A DNA stretch of 64,000 bases from Candidatus Cloacimonadota bacterium (GCA_030621085.1 JAUXIJ010000006.1:3499-67498), one strand, 5' to 3'. Counted from the first letter of the stretch, positions 1 through 9,838 are shown. Notes: generated by a model not told the origin, from the letters alone. Translations and numbers: made by a program.

Positions 1-630
1 ATCTACTAATTGTCCATCTAAAGCTGCTCTATCGAGCTTTGTTTGATATGGTGGAGCATGAAATAAAAATATCGAATTCGAAAGATTCTCCTCCGCAGTT
101 AATTTCTCAAGATCATTTTTTATAGTTGAATATTCTTTTTCATGATCTGAAATGGAATAAGTTCTATAACCTTCAGAGGGTGAGACACAACCAACATCTA
201 CGAACCTGGAAACATCGTACCGTTCCCAATCTTTTAATAAGAAAGGACTTGGGGGAATATAAGCATATCCATATATTTGAAATTCTTTATAATTTGCTTT
301 CCGATTATGAATATAAGACCATATACCAAGATTTTCTGCTTCCAGAAAAGAAATTTCCTCACTTCTCGGATCATCATTTCCCAGTATTAAATACACTTCC
401 GGGTAACCATCACCAATATTTGCTTTTAAATCCAGAAATTTTTTAACCAAATATTCATTAACGAAATCTTTGGAATGGATATCAGACAAAGCATTAAATG
501 CTGCAATAGAGGGTAACAGGTCACCACCCAGAAAAACAATATCAGGTCGTTCTTTTTCTATTTCATTGAATAGTTTCTCGTATCTATCGATTTTTCCGTG
601 AATATCTGAAACGAAGAAGCATTTAATCAT
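1..630 (-). CDS. metallophosphoesterase (calcineurin-like), C-terminal part beyond window edge
   Basis: Absent from the ORF track because it is open at the window edge. My translation from ATG 630-628: MIKCFFVSDIHGKIDRYEKLF..IVFLGGDLLP..VYLILGNDDPR..IFLFHAPPY. This is the D-x-H-G / GGD / GNDD / H-A-P motif series of the family. Starts 19 nt after the preceding stop. Confidence 0.75.
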   Translation of the reverse strand, partial: MIKCFFVSDIHGKIDRYEKLFNEIEKERPDIVFLGGDLLPSIAAFNALSDIHSKDFVNEYLVKKFLDLKANIGDGYPEVYLILGNDDPRSEEISFLEAENLGIWSYIHNRKANYKEFQIYGYAYIPPSPFLLKDWERYDVSRFVDVGCVSPSEGYRTYSISDHEKEYSTIKNDLEKLTAEENLSNSIFLFHAPPYQTKLDRAALDGQLVD

Positions 631-649
631 TTTATCGATTGTTTTCCAG

Positions 650-3600
650 TTAAGAAATATCCTTCATTTTCAAGGGACGAGCTGCATTGGTTACAGCATC
701 GATCTTAATTGCATAGCTTGTTTTTTTCTTTATGTCATCATCTGTAATGATATGAACATCGAGCAATCCATCACTTTTAAATCCTGTTTTCTGATAATTT
801 ATTTCAGCCAGACACAAACTCCATCCTTCTAACCAATTCAAAAGTTCTTTTTTCTGTTTCTCAGTTCCCCTGAAATGTATTAATATATCTATATCACTTG
901 CAGGACCGGCAACAGCATTTTTGGTGCTTCCAAAAATATAAATTCCTTTAACTCCGAACCTACCGGGATCTAGTTCACCTGCAATTTGTTCTGCCATATT
1001 TGATCTCCATCTCCAGTGATTCTCTGATTGAGGAGATGGTAATAATTCAATTTCTTCTGTAATTTGAACTTCTTCTGTAGGAAAGGAAAGATAAGCCAAA
1101 GCTTCATTCGAGTCTGCATTCATTAAAATTTTAAGAATCTTTCCATCTGTCACTTTTCTTATATCGATAACTTTTATTACATCTTCTAATGAAGAAAATT
1201 CCGGTAAAAGATTTCTTAGAATATTTTCAGATTCCGTAAAAAATTTTTCATTAAATGCAATGCCTTTATCATCTGGATATAGAGGTAAATATTTAATTGA
1301 AGATTCAACCAGATCCTGAAAGAAATGAGTTCCGAAAGACAAATCCGGGGTATAATTTCCTTTTTTCTTTGCTATCTCGATCAGCATTGCAGTGTTATTA
1401 ATGCCCGAATATGTTATATTGACCCCAAGTTTAATATCTCCTCTGCTGCCCCATCTTCCAGGTCCCATTAGAATGAATTTCTTTTTGGGTAATACTTTAT
1501 TAATATTTTCAACTGCTCTTCCAATTGATCTCAATTCTTCAATGGTTTCCAGAGAATTATACATATCCGGATCGACATATACAATATGAGAAATATTCTT
1601 AAGTTTACCGTTTGACACATATTTTTTTGCATTAAAAATGATATTTTCTTCTGCTATATCTCGCGGTATTATGGAAGGAATATTATCTTTAGAATAGCAT
1701 TGAGCTCTGCACTGTAACAGATAAAAATCCTTTCCATCAGAAGCAAATTCAATATCTACCGGCATGTTGGTTTTTTCTTGAAGAATATCTAATACACTTT
1801 TCATTTTTTTCAAAAAAGGTGTTCCGGAAATCAATCCGTTAAATGTAACAATTAAATCATCTTCTTTAAAATTAAGATTAAATAATGGTTTAGATGAAAA
1901 CCGATTCTCTTCATAAACAGATACTATTTTTTCTATCACTGGATATTCATTACCAGATACTTTTAGTAGATCAGTTATTTCAATTGTTTCAAAAGAATTA
2001 TCTTTAAGATTGATAACATCAATTTGACGAGGAGAATATCGCAGGATCTCATCGGAAGTTATATTAACTTTCAGATTAGGTTGTCCCGGTGCAGTTAAAA
2101 TTGGATAATCATCGCTTAATCTGTCTACAGATCTAGTGCCCAATCCCGGAACCATTCGTACCAATCCATCTTCCCTTTTTATTCTGGGAGACCACCTGAA
2201 TTCATTATTACTGAAGGCAACTCCTGCATAAGAAGGCAGGAAGTAATCACCTACTTTTGTTCCTACAACTTCCTGAATTATCAAAGCCATCTCTTCATGA
2301 AAATCAAGTAATCCTCGCTCTTTTCTGTATTCGATCGGATCAGGTCCAAACGTGGAAGCATAGATTTCTGCAACTGCATCCATCAAAGCATTCAAACGTT
2401 CATTTTTGGAGCCCTGATTTGCTAAAAACAGACTTTTATATTTTCCTGAGAAAGCTGCTCCTACTCTATCTTCCAATAAACTGGAACTTCTTACAACTAT
2501 CGGGTTTTCTCCAAAATCGTCTAAAGCAAGTGATAATCCGTTTATCATATCATTAGGAAAATGAGAATTCTTAAAAATCTGAATGATATTACCGTATTCT
2601 TCACGGATCTGTTCTATTGATTTATACTTCTGTTCAAAAGCTTCTTCCAGATTATTATAATGAAGAAAATGCTGCATCGTATCTGAGGTTATACACCAGG
2701 TTTTGGGGATTTTAATGTTCAGGTCTTGATCATTATCTCCTTTTGCGTTTTTCAGGATATTATAGGCAAGAAATATACCAGCGCTTTTCCCGCCTAATTT
2801 TCCATGACTATTCTGCGGAAAAATAATGTGTTGCATAATATAATAAAAGTCTTTAACATTTACGTAATTTTTTGCGATATTAATGAACTCAAGTTGCTCT
2901 GTAAAAAGCCTGTAGATCAATAGAACATTGATATTTATGTTGGTATTTAAAGATAATTCTGTCTTATCAAGACCAAGATGACGATAACGACTTATAGCAT
3001 TCTGGATATCATTGAGAGAAGAAGCCAGGCTTTCAAGTGCTAAAATTAAGAAATCTAATTTATCTTCCTGGATCCATTTTTGAAAATTTTTTAATATATC
3101 TTCATCACTCAGATATTCAGAGGCTATTATAAAAACCTGATCACTAAGATCGGTCATTGATTCTATATCTCTTTTCTTACTTGGAATATTTAAATCAAAA
3201 GTTGAATTTGTGGTTTTTGAATTTTTTTCACCCTCAAAAGAAAGTAGTAATTCCCTTGCTTTATCTATGCCTATCAGGCATAAATAGTTCATCATTTTCC
3301 TAGAGATTCTTAAAAATAAGCTGGAATCGGTTGCTTTTATCAGATCAATAATTATTTTCCAATCCTTTTTTTTATGGCTTTCAATAACATCTTTTACCGT
3401 GTCCAGCTCCATAACAGTTTGTTTCAACTTTTTATGATAAATATAATTACCTACTCTTTCGGTAATTGTCTTTAATAATTTTTTTTCATCAGGTAAGAAC
3501 GGATCTTCCTTACATAATCCGGTTGTATCAATATAAAAAACCTGAATTTTTCCAACAATTTTCTTTTCCACGATAATGTTTGCACTTAGAAAACAGTCTG

Positions 3601-3835
3601 TTTCCTTAAAACCTCCAGATTGAAATACCAGGTTTTTATAATTGATTTTCACCTTACAAATCTTGCTATATTGCCAACCCGGCGGAATTACTTTGATTAA
3701 CTTTTTAAAGATGTCTTCAAGCTCTGCATTATAATTTTTCAGGATTTTTTCAACATTGTATAAACAGTTTAATTCTTTTGCTCTTTCATTGAGATTTTCT
3801 ATTAATAACTCTAAATTCTTACTTTGTTTTTTCAT
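650..3835 (-). CDS. PEP/pyruvate-binding (PPDK_N, ATP-grasp-like) domain protein with C-terminal minimal nucleotidyltransferase domain
   Basis: 1061 aa. Has GGKSAGIFL and VVRSSSLLEDRVGAAFSGKYKS (PPDK_N signature). C-terminal FGS-x10-DIDILIHF ... DVHIITDDD is an MNT/Pol-beta type NTase motif. Shares a GPGRWGS..PDLSFGTHFF module with the upstream paralogue. No phospho-His swivel motif seen. Confidence 0.7.
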   Translation of the reverse strand: MKKQSKNLELLIENLNERAKELNCLYNVEKILKNYNAELEDIFKKLIKVIPPGWQYSKICKVKINYKNLVFQSGGFKETDCFLSANIIVEKKIVGKIQVFYIDTTGLCKEDPFLPDEKKLLKTITERVGNYIYHKKLKQTVMELDTVKDVIESHKKKDWKIIIDLIKATDSSLFLRISRKMMNYLCLIGIDKARELLLSFEGEKNSKTTNSTFDLNIPSKKRDIESMTDLSDQVFIIASEYLSDEDILKNFQKWIQEDKLDFLILALESLASSLNDIQNAISRYRHLGLDKTELSLNTNININVLLIYRLFTEQLEFINIAKNYVNVKDFYYIMQHIIFPQNSHGKLGGKSAGIFLAYNILKNAKGDNDQDLNIKIPKTWCITSDTMQHFLHYNNLEEAFEQKYKSIEQIREEYGNIIQIFKNSHFPNDMINGLSLALDDFGENPIVVRSSSLLEDRVGAAFSGKYKSLFLANQGSKNERLNALMDAVAEIYASTFGPDPIEYRKERGLLDFHEEMALIIQEVVGTKVGDYFLPSYAGVAFSNNEFRWSPRIKREDGLVRMVPGLGTRSVDRLSDDYPILTAPGQPNLKVNITSDEILRYSPRQIDVINLKDNSFETIEITDLLKVSGNEYPVIEKIVSVYEENRFSSKPLFNLNFKEDDLIVTFNGLISGTPFLKKMKSVLDILQEKTNMPVDIEFASDGKDFYLLQCRAQCYSKDNIPSIIPRDIAEENIIFNAKKYVSNGKLKNISHIVYVDPDMYNSLETIEELRSIGRAVENINKVLPKKKFILMGPGRWGSRGDIKLGVNITYSGINNTAMLIEIAKKKGNYTPDLSFGTHFFQDLVESSIKYLPLYPDDKGIAFNEKFFTESENILRNLLPEFSSLEDVIKVIDIRKVTDGKILKILMNADSNEALAYLSFPTEEVQITEEIELLPSPQSENHWRWRSNMAEQIAGELDPGRFGVKGIYIFGSTKNAVAGPASDIDILIHFRGTEKQKKELLNWLEGWSLCLAEINYQKTGFKSDGLLDVHIITDDDIKKKTSYAIKIDAVTNAARPLKMKDIS

Positions 3836-5559
3836 TTTAATATCACTCCTGTTCCGTTGCGACCATCCACCTTTACTTTCAAAGGTGATGATAATTGAAC
3901 ATGCTGCACGAATTTAGTTTCAGTAATAATTTTCTGCTTTAAAAGCCAGCTCCAGTCAATCTTTATTTTTTGAGTATTCTTGCATGAGAAATAAAAAATC
4001 CCAAAACTGGTTATATTATGAAAGAAATGAGAACCTTGGCTATAATCCGGATTCATGTCCGGCAGGCTGGATTCCACGATAACTTTTGCACCGGATATCT
4101 GATTCCAGACAACAGGAATTCCCAACCATGGATCTGAAGATCCCCACCTGCCAAATCCAATTAAAATGTAATTGATATCTTTATCGGTCAGAGAAGAATT
4201 GATCTGCTCAATTTCCTTAGACATCGCTCTTGTATACTCAGCTCTGAAATCGTTTGGTTTGATAAAGACAATGTCTTTGATCGTATCATTGACACCATTA
4301 CCCATAATATGATTGGAATAAATAAATATCTTCTCCTGCTTGTAATCTTCGATATGAACTTCAACAAATCTATTTGAGACAACCATGGGTCTTACCTGTA
4401 AAAAACCAAATCTGGCAGATTGGATATTATCCGGCTTATAAGATATCGCAAATTCAATTTCAACTTCTGTCTGAAATTTTTCTTCTGATACTTCCATTAT
4501 TTTTTTCAAGACCTCATTCAAATGTATGATCTTTGTCTTTAAGATCGGCGCAAATGTAATTACTCTTGGTCCATAACCGGAAATTCCAGAATAGATACGG
4601 TCGGATTGAAGATCATAGGTAGAACAGATGTTTTTGATAATATCGTCTTCTTCTGCTTCTTTAAGCGTGTGCTTCTCGAGGTATTCTGTTTCTTTAATAG
4701 GATCGTATTCAGAAAGTTTCCCCAAATTAACAGACCAAAACTCAGTTTGAGTCATCTTTAACATATCATTTGTAGAATTATAAGGTGGTGGAGCAGCAGG
4801 AAATTCTGGTGAATAATTCCACACTTTTCCTCCATCAACAATTGATTTTCCAAGACCCAAAGCAAGGCTCACAACTCCACCTTCCGGTTTAGATTTTCCT
4901 GTGGGATAAAAATTATACGATCTGGCAACACCGGATATGGCCGGATAAAATCTATCGCTATATTTTTCTCCAACTATTTCCTGGATTACAACAGCCATTT
5001 TTTCTTGCTTAATATCTTTTTTTATTGCTTTAAAATAGTTCTTGGAACTACTGAAAAAAGTGGAAGCATAAACAAATTTTATTGCTTCTACTAATTTATT
5101 GAAACGAGTTTTAGTATCAAATTGATTATTAGGGATCATTTTCGTTTCGAAAATTCCAGCCAGAGGTTCATACATTTTATCTTCGAACAAACTTGAGGAC
5201 CGAATAGCCAGAGGTTTGTGAATTTTAGAAATAAGACTGAATAAGTCACCATCGATGAAAGCCGGTAAACTTGCTTTTTGGAAAGCATTTGCAATAATAT
5301 CATCAGATTGATCGGATAAGGCAAGATTATAAAGGTCATTTTCTTTCATGAAAATATCAAAGATATCTGTTAAAATAACTGTCATTTGTGGAATATCAAC
5401 AGTTATATCATTGAATTTATTGTCTTTAAAAACAGAATCTATTGTATCTTTCATCAAGATCAGGCTGGAAGCTTTACCACCCGGTTCATCATTCCCTATG
5501 AAATTGAAGCTGCTGTTCTTATACATGAGGTTTCTATCAAATATTATTTTTTTATTCAT
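3832..5559 (-). CDS. PEP/pyruvate-binding (PPDK_N) domain protein, paralogue of the downstream gene
   Basis: 575 aa. Has GGKASSLILM, LAIRSSSLFEDKMYEPLAGIF, and C-terminal GFGRWGSSDPWLG..PDYSQGSHFF. ATGA overlap (3832-3835) with the next gene. Confidence 0.7.
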   Translation of the reverse strand: MNKKIIFDRNLMYKNSSFNFIGNDEPGGKASSLILMKDTIDSVFKDNKFNDITVDIPQMTVILTDIFDIFMKENDLYNLALSDQSDDIIANAFQKASLPAFIDGDLFSLISKIHKPLAIRSSSLFEDKMYEPLAGIFETKMIPNNQFDTKTRFNKLVEAIKFVYASTFFSSSKNYFKAIKKDIKQEKMAVVIQEIVGEKYSDRFYPAISGVARSYNFYPTGKSKPEGGVVSLALGLGKSIVDGGKVWNYSPEFPAAPPPYNSTNDMLKMTQTEFWSVNLGKLSEYDPIKETEYLEKHTLKEAEEDDIIKNICSTYDLQSDRIYSGISGYGPRVITFAPILKTKIIHLNEVLKKIMEVSEEKFQTEVEIEFAISYKPDNIQSARFGFLQVRPMVVSNRFVEVHIEDYKQEKIFIYSNHIMGNGVNDTIKDIVFIKPNDFRAEYTRAMSKEIEQINSSLTDKDINYILIGFGRWGSSDPWLGIPVVWNQISGAKVIVESSLPDMNPDYSQGSHFFHNITSFGIFYFSCKNTQKIKIDWSWLLKQKIITETKFVQHVQLSSPLKVKVDGRNGTGVILK

Positions 5560-5644: not shown

Positions 5645-6928
5645 CTATATCCAACCTCTATCTCTGGAAGCCTGTGCAACTTTGTTTATCGAGATCACAT
5701 AGGCAGCATCCCTCATATAAAGATTCTTTTCTTTGGCCAGTTTAGAAACATCGAGATATGCAGAAGTCATTTTAACATCCAGCTTTCCAAAGACTTCATC
5801 CTTTTCCCAGTAGTAATTCATATTACATTGAACCTGTTCAAAATAACTGCATGTTACACCACCGGCATTTGCCAGGAAATCCGGGATCATGTGAATTCCT
5901 CTTTCCTTGATAACTGCATCTGCTTCCGGGGTGGTTGGTCCGTTCGCACCTTCAGCAATTATTTTTACTTTAGAACTGATCTTATCAACGTTATCTTTCG
6001 TGATCTGATTTTCAAGAGCAGCAGGAATAAGAATATCAACTTCCTGCTCGATCCATTTATCACCAGATAATACTTCATAACCGAGAGCTTTGGCTTTTTC
6101 TTTGTCGATACCACCAAATCTATCCGTGATAGATAATAGAGCATCAACATCGATCCCATCAGCTTTTGCGAATGTATAAGAAGTATTATCAGCTTGATCC
6201 CAAGAGGAAACACAAACTACTTTTCCACCTAATTGATTGTAAAGTTTTATGGCATATTGAGCAACATTTCCGAAACCTTGAAAAGCAGCAGTAGTATCTG
6301 CCGGTTTGATATTCATTTCCTTCAAAGCTTCTCTAACTGTGAAGATCACACCATAACCGGTTGCTTCTGTTCTTCCCAGCGAACCACCCATTCCAACAGG
6401 TTTTCCAGTGATCATTCCAGGATATTTTGCTCCGCGAATAGCTTCATATTCATCGAGCATCCAAAGCATGTGCTGAGCACTTGTCATAACATCCGGTGCA
6501 GGAACATCCTGCAATGGTCCAACATCACGTGCAATTTTTCTTACCCAGCCTCTGCAGATCTGTTCCTGTTCTCTTTCACTCAAATTATGAGGATCACAGA
6601 TAACTCCTCCTTTACTTCCTCCCAAAGGGATATCAACAACTGCGCATTTCCAGGTCATCCACATAGATAGAGCACGAACAGTATCTATTGTTTCCTGGGG
6701 ATGGAATCTGATTCCACCCTTACCGGGTCCCCTGGCATCGTTGTGCTGACATCTGAATCCCCTGAAAACTTTCGATGTTCCATCATCCATTTTTACTGGA
6801 ATACTGAAATGATATTCCCTTATCGGATTTCTTAATAAATCCTTTGTTGCTTCATCTAAATTTAAGATTTCGGCAACATCATCAAACTGCTTCTGAGCCA
6901 TCTCAAAAGCGTTAAATGTCCTACTCAT
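5645..6928 (-). CDS. gdhA: glutamate dehydrogenase (Glu/Leu/Phe/Val dehydrogenase family)
   Basis: 427 aa. Has GKGGIRFHP, VVDIPLGGSKGG and a GFGNVAQ Rossmann motif. Confidence 0.9.
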   Translation of the reverse strand: MSRTFNAFEMAQKQFDDVAEILNLDEATKDLLRNPIREYHFSIPVKMDDGTSKVFRGFRCQHNDARGPGKGGIRFHPQETIDTVRALSMWMTWKCAVVDIPLGGSKGGVICDPHNLSEREQEQICRGWVRKIARDVGPLQDVPAPDVMTSAQHMLWMLDEYEAIRGAKYPGMITGKPVGMGGSLGRTEATGYGVIFTVREALKEMNIKPADTTAAFQGFGNVAQYAIKLYNQLGGKVVCVSSWDQADNTSYTFAKADGIDVDALLSITDRFGGIDKEKAKALGYEVLSGDKWIEQEVDILIPAALENQITKDNVDKISSKVKIIAEGANGPTTPEADAVIKERGIHMIPDFLANAGGVTCSYFEQVQCNMNYYWEKDEVFGKLDVKMTSAYLDVSKLAKEKNLYMRDAAYVISINKVAQASRDRGWI

Positions 6929-7220: not shown

Positions 7221-8801
7221 ATGAAAAGATTGGTAGTTCTTATTATGTTGCTTTATGCAATTTCGATTTTTGCACAATATGGAGACATTAGCTGGAATTC
7301 TCCGCAATTAACTTCAAACAATTCCTTTTCCTTTTTAGAAAAAAACCTGGATGAATCTAACTTGTTTTCGTTGAAAAATATACGGGTGTTACGAGATTCT
7401 TCTACCATTAATTTTGCGCTTTTTTCCTGGCAGGATTTCAAACATTCAGTAAGTAATTTCTTTTCGCAGGATGATAATTCTTATTTTCTTTACTACCGAT
7501 CACCGGATAGGCAACCTAATCGATTAGATCCAAGATCTTCCTCAATGTCTTTTCATCCTAACAACATACCGCTAAGATCTCTTCTCAGGTTTAGTTTACA
7601 TACCGGAAGCGACTTCGCAGTAAAAGGTGATAATAATTATTATTTTGTTTTTTATGGTACAAAACTTTCCGGTTATATTAACCGCAGACTGTTTTTTTAC
7701 GGATACTGGTGGGCAGGTCATTTTGCAGGCGATACAGATTATGCAGATTCGACTTCAGCTCTGATTGATAGCTGGACGCAAAGTTCCAGCGATAACGATC
7801 AAATCCATCTTGATAATATTACCGGTAAAATTACCTATATTGGGAAAGGTAATTTTTGGTCAGCTTCTATTGGTAGAGGAAAATACGAGATAGGAAGCAA
7901 TATCGGTGGAAGTATCATCTTGAACAATGACTGCAATGATTATGGATATTTCAGTAATAAGTTCATTTTTAAAGAACTTTATATCTCATTTCTGCATGCC
8001 ACTCTCATACCGGACAGCACCAGCTACCTGGAAGATAAAAAATATACAGATAAATTCCTGGTGATTCATAAGATCGGTTGGACACCGAATAATAAATTTG
8101 AACTTTTCCTGGGCGAAGAAGTTATTTACGGCAACCGGAATATCGAGGTGAGTTACCTGTTACCTATAACATTCTGGCGAGCTACGGAGCATAATATTGC
8201 TGACCGCGATAATGTGCTGATCTTCGCAGGAATGAATTGGAAACCGATAAATAATAATCTTATTTACTCTAATTTTATTCTGGATGAACTGCGAAAAAGT
8301 GAGATTTTTGGAGATTGGTGGGGAAACAAATATGCATTGCAGATGGGAAATTCCTATACTTTTGACCAACAGAGGAATTTGAAGTTAAGCTTGGAATTTA
8401 CAGCGATCCGTCCCTGGCTATATACACATTACATCTTGCATAACAAGTTTTCTCATGACAGGATAGGATTAGGTTTTCCGGAAGGAAGCAACCTGATCCA
8501 GTTCGCAACAGAATTCAATATTGATCTAAGACAAAACTTGAATTTCAACCTGCATTCAGCTTTCACCAGGCAGGGAAGCGTGGGAAACAGTTTCAGCATT
8601 AATTATGAGTCACGTGATAAATCAAAAGATAACGACACACATTGGCTGGAAGGAGAAATTACCAATAAACTTTCTCTTTGCCCTGTGATAACCTGGCAGC
8701 CACTAGCTCATCATCATCTGAAAATTGGACTTTCTTCTACACAGACCGAAGAAGAAGATATGGAAAACGAAATATTCATCAGTTATCAGGCAATTTATTA
8801 A
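7221..8801 (+). CDS. putative outer-membrane beta-barrel protein
   Basis: Signal peptide MKRLVVLIMLLYAISIFAQ. 526 aa with an aromatic C-terminus (..ISYQAIY). Its stop overlaps the GT2 start (TAATG at 8799-8803). Confidence 0.5.
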   Translation: MKRLVVLIMLLYAISIFAQYGDISWNSPQLTSNNSFSFLEKNLDESNLFSLKNIRVLRDSSTINFALFSWQDFKHSVSNFFSQDDNSYFLYYRSPDRQPNRLDPRSSSMSFHPNNIPLRSLLRFSLHTGSDFAVKGDNNYYFVFYGTKLSGYINRRLFFYGYWWAGHFAGDTDYADSTSALIDSWTQSSSDNDQIHLDNITGKITYIGKGNFWSASIGRGKYEIGSNIGGSIILNNDCNDYGYFSNKFIFKELYISFLHATLIPDSTSYLEDKKYTDKFLVIHKIGWTPNNKFELFLGEEVIYGNRNIEVSYLLPITFWRATEHNIADRDNVLIFAGMNWKPINNNLIYSNFILDELRKSEIFGDWWGNKYALQMGNSYTFDQQRNLKLSLEFTAIRPWLYTHYILHNKFSHDRIGLGFPEGSNLIQFATEFNIDLRQNLNFNLHSAFTRQGSVGNSFSINYESRDKSKDNDTHWLEGEITNKLSLCPVITWQPLAHHHLKIGLSSTQTEEEDMENEIFISYQAIY

Positions 8802-9838
8802 TGGATTTAATTATACTGGTTTTCTCTGTTTTCTTGATAATTCTCGGATTGAGTATCTTACGAAACTGGAAGGTTAAATCCCCTGTGCAAAACACTTATT
8901 CCATCCTGATAGCCTGTCGTAATGAAGAAAGTAATTTACCTGAATTATTTCAATCCCTCAGAAAGATCGACTATCCATATGATAAATTCGAGATTATTAT
9001 TGTAGATGATGCATCTGATGATGATTCCTTCAGGCTGATCAGCAATTTCTGTACTGATTTTAAGAATGCGAAATGCTTCCGACTCGAAGAAAAAGACACT
9101 GAATATTTTGGTAAAAAAGCCGCTCTCAAGAAAGCTGCTGATAATGCGATTTTTGATTTTCTGCTCTTCACAGATGCCGATTGCTTTCCGCAACCAGATT
9201 GGCTGAAAAGTTATAATAAAAATATCTCCGATAAAACAGGCATGGTAGTGGGAAATTATGAAGAGAAAAATGCATCGAGTTTCCGAATATTTTCAAACCG
9301 TATATCCTTTGCCATTTTTGCAGGCACCATTGGATTGAATTGTCCTTTCAGCGCTGCTGGTGGCAACTTGGCTGTACGAAAGAAAGCATTTCTGGAAGTT
9401 GGCGGTTACGATAAAATAAGACATCATCTAGCCGGGGATGATAAACTACTTCTTAACCTGATAAGGAAAACAGATTGGCAGATATCCTATAACCCGGAAT
9501 CGGTTGTACAGACAAAAGCAGTTCCCGATAAAACAAGTTCCTATCACCAGCAGAAAAGGCGTTACGGAAAGTTCGGTATGTCATCATTCGGCTTTAAGAT
9601 AATATCGCTTTTAATTGTATTGATATATCTATATATCCCTGTGAGATTCTTTGTTTTCAAAGATTGGGAAAGCGTATTGATTTACTTTTTGGGAACTCTT
9701 TTCTTCTGGGCAATGAACATTGCAAAGCATAAATTTCGATTCAGAATGATCGATCTGATCTTTATTCTGATCTATCCTTATTATCTAATTATATATTCAA
9801 TCTTAGGAACTTTCGGCACCTGGAATTGGAAGAATTAA
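8801..9838 (+). CDS. family-2 glycosyltransferase, membrane-bound
   Basis: Start moved to ATG 8801, because the ORF-track start 8678 lies inside the upstream gene. N-terminal TM helix, then ILIACRNEESNL..FEIIIVDDASDD..FTDADC (GT2 D-x-D signatures), then C-terminal TM helices. Confidence 0.8.
   Translation: MDLIILVFSVFLIILGLSILRNWKVKSPVQNTYSILIACRNEESNLPELFQSLRKIDYPYDKFEIIIVDDASDDDSFRLISNFCTDFKNAKCFRLEEKDTEYFGKKAALKKAADNAIFDFLLFTDADCFPQPDWLKSYNKNISDKTGMVVGNYEEKNASSFRIFSNRISFAIFAGTIGLNCPFSAAGGNLAVRKKAFLEVGGYDKIRHHLAGDDKLLLNLIRKTDWQISYNPESVVQTKAVPDKTSSYHQQKRRYGKFGMSSFGFKIISLLIVLIYLYIPVRFFVFKDWESVLIYFLGTLFFWAMNIAKHKFRFRMIDLIFILIYPYYLIIYSILGTFGTWNWKN

Follow-up and report, generated by a model that had tools for sequence, protein, structure and literature searches.

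Genes of the locus

A stretch of 64,000 nucleotides (nt) from a Candidatus Cloacimonadota bacterium (GCA_030621085.1, JAUXIJ010000006.1:3499-67498) is called the window here. Near its start it carries a neighbourhood of four genes, which encode a glutamate dehydrogenase (GDH), two large proteins with a PPDK_N-type ATP-grasp domain (P575 and P1061) and a metallophosphoesterase (MPE), and which might together form a control system for GDH. Window coordinates are used throughout, and relatives are given as numbered loci (L) and proteins (P).

The gdh gene (5645..6928, minus strand) is the conserved first gene of the neighbourhood and encodes a hexameric-type GDH of 427 amino acids (aa). This GDH has ordinary length and fold (PDB 1euz and 1gtm, E ~1e-127), and its match to the NCBIfam model GdhA_Arch (3e-146, 488 bits) lies under the equivalog cut-off of 750. 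Then follows the gene of P575 (3832..5559, minus strand), a protein of 575 aa composed of a PPDK_N ATP-grasp domain (aa 27-408, 4336..5481, minus strand) and a C-terminal alpha/beta module, hereafter the C-module (aa 409-575, 3835..4335, minus strand), with the codon of His511 at 4027-4029. P1061 (650..3835, minus strand; 1061 aa) consists of an N-terminal coiled helix with a probable GAF-like sensor domain (aa ~1-150, 3386..3835), placed by an AlphaFold2 (AF2) model and Foldseek, an all-helical linker domain (aa ~158-335, 2831..3364), placed by the secondary structure of the AF2 model, a PPDK_N ATP-grasp domain (aa 346-720, 1676..2800), a C-module paralogous to that of P575 (aa ~721-905, 1121..1675; codon of His837 at 1325-1327) and a pol-beta/MNT-type nucleotidyltransferase (NTase) domain (aa ~936-1061, 653..1030), all on the minus strand. 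The MPE gene (1..630, minus strand) is cut by the window edge, with the N-terminal 210 of about 283 aa left inside.

The stop codon of P575 and the start codon of P1061 share an ATGA overlap at 3832-3835, through which P1061 is translationally coupled to P575. Between the stop of P1061 and the start of MPE (630) there is a gap of 19 nt, and MPE runs off the window start. The initial annotation, which was made from the sequence of the window, had described these three genes as co-directional and linked by this overlap and gap, and all of these features were present on the minus strand. It had also taken the gdh terminator as the upstream boundary of the group. A terminator-like hairpin with a 10-bp stem and a T-run was indeed found between gdh and P575 (5607..5632, minus strand), but gdh itself belongs to the unit, as the census below revealed. 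This hairpin is possibly a partial terminator, by which the genes behind it would be expressed at a lower level. Only 19 of 72 related loci had a similar hairpin with a T-tail, so a terminator after gdh was rejected as a conserved feature.

Conservation of the linkage with gdh

One genome per species was scanned, giving at least 591 confirmed loci, of which the best 80 were kept. These 80 loci and five found earlier were used for a tblastn census. The sampled lineages came from at least 10 phyla, including Ignavibacteriota, Calditrichota, Zixibacteria, Gemmatimonadota, Acidobacteriota/Aminicenantes, Eisenbacteria, Krumholzibacteriota, Cloacimonadota, Bacteroidota, Planctomycetota and others. 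In 70 of the 75 loci with enough flanking sequence, the P575 homologue was immediately preceded by a GDH gene of the same orientation, with 67-81% identity to the window GDH and a gap of 21-531 nt to P575. Three of the five loci without an adjacent GDH have a GDH-family gene within 10 kb. Thus gdh is the most constant partner of the P575-P1061 pair, and hence no boundary of it.

The P1061 homologue came directly after P575 in 65 of 66 loci, its NTase end was kept in 59 of 63, and in 47 of 73 the P575 stop and P1061 start had an overlap of 4 or 8 nt. Fusions of P575 and P1061 of about 1620-1650 aa also occur; P0126 is such a head-to-tail fusion, with a P575-like half (51% identical to P575) followed by a P1061-like half.

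In 52 loci a homologue of the MPE (~50% identity, 283 aa) adjoined P1061 at its 3' end; 9 of these copies share the strand of P1061, and the other 43 are convergent. The co-directional operon of three genes in the initial annotation, as it stands in the window, is therefore a minority arrangement. When only the same strand was counted (9 of 63 loci) the MPE looked like an accessory gene, an idea that was dropped, since counting both strands gives the 52 adjacent cases. In a reciprocal look-up, all four MPE homologues, chosen only for their long contigs, were found beside gdh-P575-P1061. The linkage of the trio in relatives, which had been named beforehand as a test, was thus strongly conserved both in the locus census and in the MPE-centred look-ups, and the four-gene neighbourhood gdh-P575-P1061-MPE is conserved across phyla, in hundreds of bacterial species. 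No other gene family recurred around the cluster in the neighbourhood census of the loci, so a longer metabolic pathway is disfavoured.

A widespread third paralogue class of ~990-1000 aa was revealed (L004:15214-18210, L017:4482-7430(-) and L088-L167), which is composed of a pseudo-receiver, a receiver (REC), a DUF5752-like linker, PPDK_N and the C-module, with no NTase. These receiver-type paralogues have Pfam Response_reg matches and the canonical receiver signature D/E-D...D...S...K, which reads IILIEDN, ILGIISD, PILLQS and FLLKDSP in aa ~180-315 of the class alignment. In L007, L017 and L068 the receiver-type gene is directly behind another GDH of ~450 aa, 33-44% identical to the window GDH. 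A metagenome scan with the receiver-type alignment returned 80 loci, 58 of them with enough upstream sequence. In 35 of these 58 the receiver-type gene was immediately preceded, on its own strand, by a GDH of this second class (~450 aa, 33% identical to the window GDH). Downstream, a third-class GDH (46-49% identical to the window GDH) was present in 8 of 54 receiver-type loci. The GDHs at receiver-type loci are ELFV dehydrogenases according to Pfam.

Thus at least two couplings exist between the family with PPDK_N and C-module and the GDH family, and the input domain differs between them. No other evidence speaks as strongly for a functional link that is specific to the GDH protein as this repeated pairing with distinct GDH classes, and separate regulators for separate isoenzymes fit specificity at the protein level.

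Several observations were made around the receiver-type genes. Several GDH paralogues interleave with REC-PPDK_N paralogues in L088-L093, L097, L104 and L106, in what look like dense GDH/regulator arrays; in L090:1-10357 the order is REC-PPDK_N, second-class GDH, REC-PPDK_N, a GDH 47% identical to that of the window, and a GDH on the opposite strand. In one locus, REC-PPDK_N is directly followed by a gene for alanine dehydrogenase (AlaDh_PNT, L004:18751-19884); it was not seen in the other loci searched and is maybe incidental. Shorter and very divergent PPDK_N-like open reading frames (ORFs), with ~23-25% identity to the receiver-type ATP-grasp, were found at L026:4966-6621(-), L032:7145-8455(-), L038:7066-8376(-) and L041:18476-19747(-). 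The first of them (~551 aa) had no Pfam match at 1e-3 and adjoins a second GDH-class gene. In P0307 (1524 aa), P0318 (1557 aa) and P0310 (1145 aa), 600-1000 unassigned N-terminal residues precede PPDK_N and the C-module; among the three there is one OKR_DC_1_N-like (receiver-fold) match and one REC with DUF5752.

For the rest of the window (1-64000), the minus strand carries almost every large ORF from ~10.5 kb onward. Two ORFs of 526 aa and 386 aa (7221-9838, plus strand) are divergent from gdh. Read by eye only, the first begins with a signal-peptide-like segment and is beta-rich and outer-membrane-like in composition, and the second resembles a family-2 glycosyltransferase with a DDASDD motif. 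No RNA family was found in an Rfam scan of the whole window at gathering thresholds.

Domains of the encoded proteins

PPDK_N domains were identified by Pfam PF01326 in P1061 (1.8e-57) and P575 (5.2e-32), in agreement with the initial annotation. The signature RSSS..ED..AG given there was present, but its spacing is approximate, and P1061 reads ...FSG instead of AG. P575 and P1061 could be aligned with 27% identity over ~535 aa (E 5e-41), including the C-terminal module, and are therefore paralogues. Residues invariant among P575 homologues are GGK29, R120-SSS-x2-ED, E367-I-E369-F and Q388-x-R390, and those among P1061 homologues are GGK350, R449-SSS-LLED, D694-I-E696-F and Q708-x-R710. The ATP/Mg motifs GGK, RSSxxxED, (E/D)-I-E-F and LQxRP of both families align with E. 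coli PpsA. Since these motifs of phosphoenolpyruvate (PEP) synthase are kept, both PPDK_N domains should be catalytically competent. P575 has more than 8000 homologue clusters with ~55% identity across phyla, and P1061 homologues are similarly widespread and conserved, over the full length including the N-terminal extension.

The other domains of dikinases were absent. Neither PEP-utilizers (the swivel domain, PF00391) nor PEP-utilizers_C (the TIM barrel, PF02896) was matched by Pfam in P575 or P1061, and no rifampicin-binding-type or other acceptor-binding domain was found in the Pfam scan of the two proteins. P575 ends right after the C-module, and P1061 continues into the NTase. The NCBIfam models of PEP synthase, pyruvate, phosphate dikinase (PPDK), rifampicin phosphotransferase and PigC/RedH gave 12-62 bits against cut-offs of 456-1350, the best dikinase score being 61.8 bits against 598 (PRK06464); thus P575 and P1061 belong to no characterised dikinase family. 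The earlier statement that they are incomplete compared with PPDK, PEP synthase or rifampicin phosphotransferase was borne out by the missing swivel domain and TIM barrel as well as by these scores.

The current public names of the homologues are 'hypothetical', 'PEP/pyruvate-binding domain-containing protein' and 'nucleotidyltransferase domain-containing protein', and some are called 'pyruvate, water dikinase' or 'pyruvate, phosphate dikinase'. Such names in the sources, together with the PPDK_N domain, would suggest that these are ordinary PEP synthase or PPDK genes. However, the swivel domain and the PEP-utilizers_C TIM barrel are missing, the C-module is unrelated to swivel domains, and the NCBIfam PEP synthase and PPDK models scored 14-62 bits against cut-offs of 456-1063. 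The missing domains effectively exclude this explanation, to which we give hardly any probability. The two dikinase names are wrong and distort metabolic reconstructions of metagenome-assembled genomes (MAGs).

P575 and P1061 might instead be pathway enzymes of the dikinase type in amino-acid catabolism, which phosphorylate or activate a small molecule that GDH makes or uses (glutamate, 2-oxoglutarate or a derivative), with the MPE as a downstream hydrolase. All characterised PPDK_N enzymes known to us, such as PEP synthase, PPDK, rifampicin phosphotransferase, PigC/RedH and glucan water dikinase, have small molecules or glycans as substrates, and weak NCBIfam similarity to these families was seen. 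Adjacency to a metabolic gene is the classic context of a pathway, and the carriers are largely MAGs labelled e.g. Cloacimonadota, Ignavibacteriota and Calditrichota, lineages generally regarded as degraders of peptides and amino acids. However, pathway enzymes seldom carry receiver or GAF-like input domains, the neighbourhood has no further conserved pathway genes or transporters, and neither a substrate-binding TIM barrel nor a rifampicin-binding-type domain is present. In addition, the unit of PPDK_N and C-module pairs with GDH classes sharing 33% identity, and the terminator-like hairpin after gdh hints at lower downstream expression. On balance a role as pathway enzymes is quite improbable.

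The C-module described in the initial annotation was confirmed, with GFGRWGS...PDYSQGSHFF and GPGRWGS...PDLSFGTHFF in the two proteins. Its invariants are GxGRWG, D, E, SxGxHFF and Y. An AF2 model of P575 aa 398-575, made with a 72-sequence alignment including both paralogue families, gave an alpha/beta domain with pLDDT 91 and pTM 0.89. In the modelled fragment GxGRWG comes after strand 67-72, and SxG(S/T)HFF, with the invariant His, opens helix 113-121 after a loop of lower confidence. The similar order of secondary-structure elements and the apparent parallels to swivel motifs (GNG.., LIGFGRWGS.DPW, SQGSHFF and VDGR.G.GVI) gave a hint that the module could be a diverged swivel phospho-His domain. 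Foldseek of the model against PDB found no fold match (best E 0.03, TM <=0.30), the module profile matched no dikinase or any other entry among PDB sequences, 24 C-modules had no Pfam match at E up to 10, and hhalign against the swivel domains of E. coli PpsA, PtsI and the L021 PPDK returned probabilities of 0.1-0.2%. The swivel identity was rejected as unsupported, and the earlier statement that a swivel phospho-His motif is missing agrees with all four tests. When 1.84 billion representative proteins were searched with the module profile, 2270 clusters contained the C-module, which was always C-terminal to PPDK_N in the architectures checked. As modelled, the C-module is a new domain with an invariant His and without a known relative in PDB or Pfam.

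The ~330-aa N-terminal extension noted earlier in P1061 comprises a probable GAF-like sensor and a helical domain, and the segment ELNCLYNVEKIL reported near its start was found at aa 21-32. The invariants of this region include E17, R18, E21, L22, C24, Y26 and P51. The AF2 model of aa 1-345 (pLDDT 79) has, in order, a long helix, a small alpha/beta core (aa ~35-110), another long helix and an all-helical domain. Foldseek matches of the model were weak in E (0.05-0.5) but consistently GAF domains, namely KdpD GAF (4y2f, TM(target) 0.60, probability 0.97) and 3ibj (probability 0.99), with PDE2A, PDE6, phytochromes and CodY as others. Pfam had no match, including none to GAF, for the N-terminal region, and Foldseek gave no specific fold match for the all-helical linker domain. 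By these model matches the N-terminus is a probable GAF-like sensor.

The C-terminal MNT-type NTase with GS-x10-DIDIL was likewise confirmed by Pfam NTP_transf_2 (PF01909, aa 960-997, 3.3e-07, 31 bits against a cut-off of 21) and by the motif; Polbeta and MTPAP-like Pfam models matched as well. G969-S970, followed after 10 residues by D981-I-D983 and then by D1026, was invariant in 30 homologues. The NTase is of the minimal MNT type, not a cyclase or CD-NTase. An MNT-type NTase could indicate a toxin-antitoxin or phage-defence element, and weak matches to the NTase core were obtained with PADLOC PDC-S09 (E 5e-08) and NCBIfam MntA (E 4e-04), in aa 959-1001 only. These matches, however, cover ~40 residues of a 1061-aa protein, with MntA at 20 bits against a cut-off of 60, and with PADLOC P575 had no match and the MPE only E 0.024. 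No HEPN partner, as in HEPN-MNT type VII toxin-antitoxin systems, was found, the neighbours being gdh, P575 and MPE, and the NTase does not stand alone; synteny with the housekeeping gene gdh across phyla and high sequence conservation are unlike defence islands. A toxin-antitoxin or defence role is effectively excluded by the PADLOC coverage, the lack of HEPN and the gdh synteny, and keeps a very small probability.

The MPE assignment was confirmed by Pfam Metallophos (1.7e-11, 45 bits against a cut-off of 21.5). Five metal-binding motifs, D8-x-H10, GGD36, G80-N-D-D83, H187 and GH233-x-H235, were kept in 20 homologues. Motif III reads GNDD, without the His of PPP protein phosphatases, which we take to be closer to GNCD of the YfcE/MJ0936 phosphodiesterase type than to GNHE of PPP phosphatases. 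The nearest database matches were marginal, being PRK09453 (YfcE-like, N-terminal part, E 0.0035) and PDB 2yvt (E 0.064). An MPE homologue was also located behind an NTase-less receiver-type paralogue in two loci (L109:9065-9931 and L130:3500-3892), so the MPE may relate to the chemistry of PPDK_N and C-module and not to the NTase.

Such an MPE could also belong to a second-messenger module, in which the unit of PPDK_N and C-module and/or the NTase make a diffusible, phosphorylated or nucleotide-derived signal from ATP, controlled by the GAF or receiver domains, the MPE degrades it and GDH is its allosteric target. A sensor or receiver with an enzymatic output is the standard layout of a messenger synthase, and GAF-like and REC-like domains precede PPDK_N here. 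The MPE has the phosphodiesterase-like GNDD motif, and metallophosphoesterases include the class III cNMP phosphodiesterases, e.g. CpdA and Rv0805; the NTase is in the pol-beta superfamily, and the MPE is often not co-transcribed with the cluster. Yet a diffusible signal would not need its own adjacent PPDK_N paralogue for each GDH paralogue, the NTase is of minimal MNT type and not a cyclase or CD-NTase, and the receiver-type paralogues are without NTase and mostly without MPE. Moreover, no candidate receptor domain was seen in the window GDH, with its ordinary length and fold. A second messenger is thus unlikely.

Possible control of GDH and comparison with known systems

The initial annotation had left the trio as an unassigned nucleotide-transfer module. 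The linkage with gdh, the convergent MPE, the GAF-like N-terminus, the fusions and the receiver-type pairings lead from there to a signal-controlled module dedicated to GDH. Tentatively, and somewhat short of an even chance, gdh, P575, P1061 and MPE are regarded as one unit, a signal-gated, ATP-consuming module of ATP-grasp/NTase and phosphodiesterase which would control GDH post-translationally. The translational coupling and the natural fusions suggest that P575 and P1061 would form an equimolar hetero-complex. The GAF-like N-terminus of P1061, with its weak to moderate fold assignment, might sense a metabolite, and in the paralogous class receiver domains in its place would take input from a two-component system. 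With the ATP/Mg motifs of PEP synthase kept, both PPDK_N domains would be active. ATP would be cleaved in the manner of dikinases, and a phosphoryl or pyrophosphoryl group would be transferred to a carrier residue, for which the candidate is the invariant His (H511 in P575, H837 in P1061) at the helix start after a flexible loop. This His may carry a phosphoryl group as the swivel His does in dikinases, so that the C-terminal alpha/beta module would replace the missing swivel domain. The group might then be transferred onto GDH, or onto a GDH-bound ligand, altering GDH activity, and the NTase of P1061 might attach a nucleotidyl mark either to GDH or to the hetero-complex. Finally, the phosphodiesterase-type MPE would erase the mark and reset the system.

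Several points weigh against this proposal. The control of GDH is inferred only from gene context and domain architecture, and gene adjacency is equally compatible with a diffusible product acting on GDH. In 2 of 75 loci no GDH was found within 10 kb, and 23 of 58 receiver-type loci have no adjacent GDH. Co-transcription of the four genes is not the rule, because a hairpin is present in about a quarter of the loci and the MPE is mostly on the opposite strand. Since receiver-type paralogues are without NTase and mostly without MPE, writing and erasing by NTase and MPE cannot be the core chemistry. The His is proposed as carrier from its conservation and position only, there being no swivel homology. 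A so far unrecognised and phylogenetically broad system of post-translational GDH control, in which the new phospho-His carrier domain and/or the NTase would phosphorylate or nucleotidylylate GDH on a metabolite (GAF) or two-component (REC) signal and a dedicated phosphodiesterase would erase the modification, is doubtful as a whole, and the probability left over by all these readings falls to something else.

GDH is a junction of carbon and nitrogen metabolism, and many anaerobes, as well as bacteria of the Fibrobacterota-Chlorobiota-Bacteroidota (FCB) group, use it as a main route of ammonia assimilation or glutamate breakdown. The cluster is a testable candidate for GDH control in those bacteria. 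The basis of the candidate is the adjacency to gdh, conserved in no fewer than 591 species hits, a family with thousands of protein clusters in metagenomes, and two or three GDH classes each with its own sensor-equipped PPDK_N paralogue. Should GDH indeed be modified, a central enzyme would have a newly recognised regulatory system, comparable for GDH to the GlnE/GlnD cascade, and the unit of PPDK_N and C-module would be a new class of signalling output domain. In addition, PPDK_N without a swivel domain but with a confidently folded new domain extends the repertoire of dikinase-type chemistry.

A full-text literature search found no paper describing the gdh-P575-P1061-MPE cluster. Its parts belong to known superfamilies, and the combination is that of a dikinase-type ATP-grasp enzyme, signalling inputs and a new module that would serve as carrier or acceptor. 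P575 and P1061 share with PpsA, PPDK and rifampicin phosphotransferase the N-terminal PPDK_N domain with GGK, RSSxxxED, D/E-I-E-F/W and LQxRP, but are without the swivel, TIM barrel or rifampicin-binding domain. In place of these they have the new alpha/beta module of 170 aa, whose His is invariant, and the architecture is extended by sensor (GAF-like or REC) and NTase domains; they also form a paralogue pair linked to gdh.

For transfer from an ATP-grasp to a His in a separate alpha/beta domain, succinyl-CoA synthetase would be the mechanistic precedent. In succinyl-CoA synthetase and ADP-forming acetyl-CoA synthetase, the ATP-grasp phosphorylates a loop His at a helix start in a separate alpha/beta domain, and in this superfamily the phospho-His domain then moves to a second site. 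Unlike these enzymes, the C-module has no homology to the succinyl-CoA synthetase alpha subunit detectable by Foldseek or profile searches, the ATP-grasp is of a different subtype, and P575 and P1061 have no CoA-binding domains. Response regulators and GAF proteins with GGDEF, PP2C or CheB outputs likewise place an N-terminal receiver or GAF-like input before a catalytic output; to our knowledge PPDK_N with the C-module is not a described output type. The MPE shares calcineurin-like motifs and a motif III without the PPP His with the YfcE/MJ0936 type and aq_1956 (PDB 2yvt), but the similarity is marginal and the MPE is a distinct subfamily linked to the gdh cluster.

GlnE (glutamine synthetase adenylyltransferase) and GlnD (PII uridylyltransferase/uridylyl-removing enzyme) offer a functional analogy only. 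Beyond the NTase superfamily there is no sequence relationship, and neither has a counterpart of the ATP-grasp pair. Removal would be performed here by a separate MPE and not by an NTase or HD domain, and the putative target is GDH instead of glutamine synthetase or PII. The carrier lineages, as far as we know, generally lack GlnE and GlnD. In common with GlnE and GlnD, the proposed system would have a large multidomain protein with a pol-beta-superfamily NTase, a sensor and a removing activity, dedicated to a central enzyme of nitrogen assimilation.

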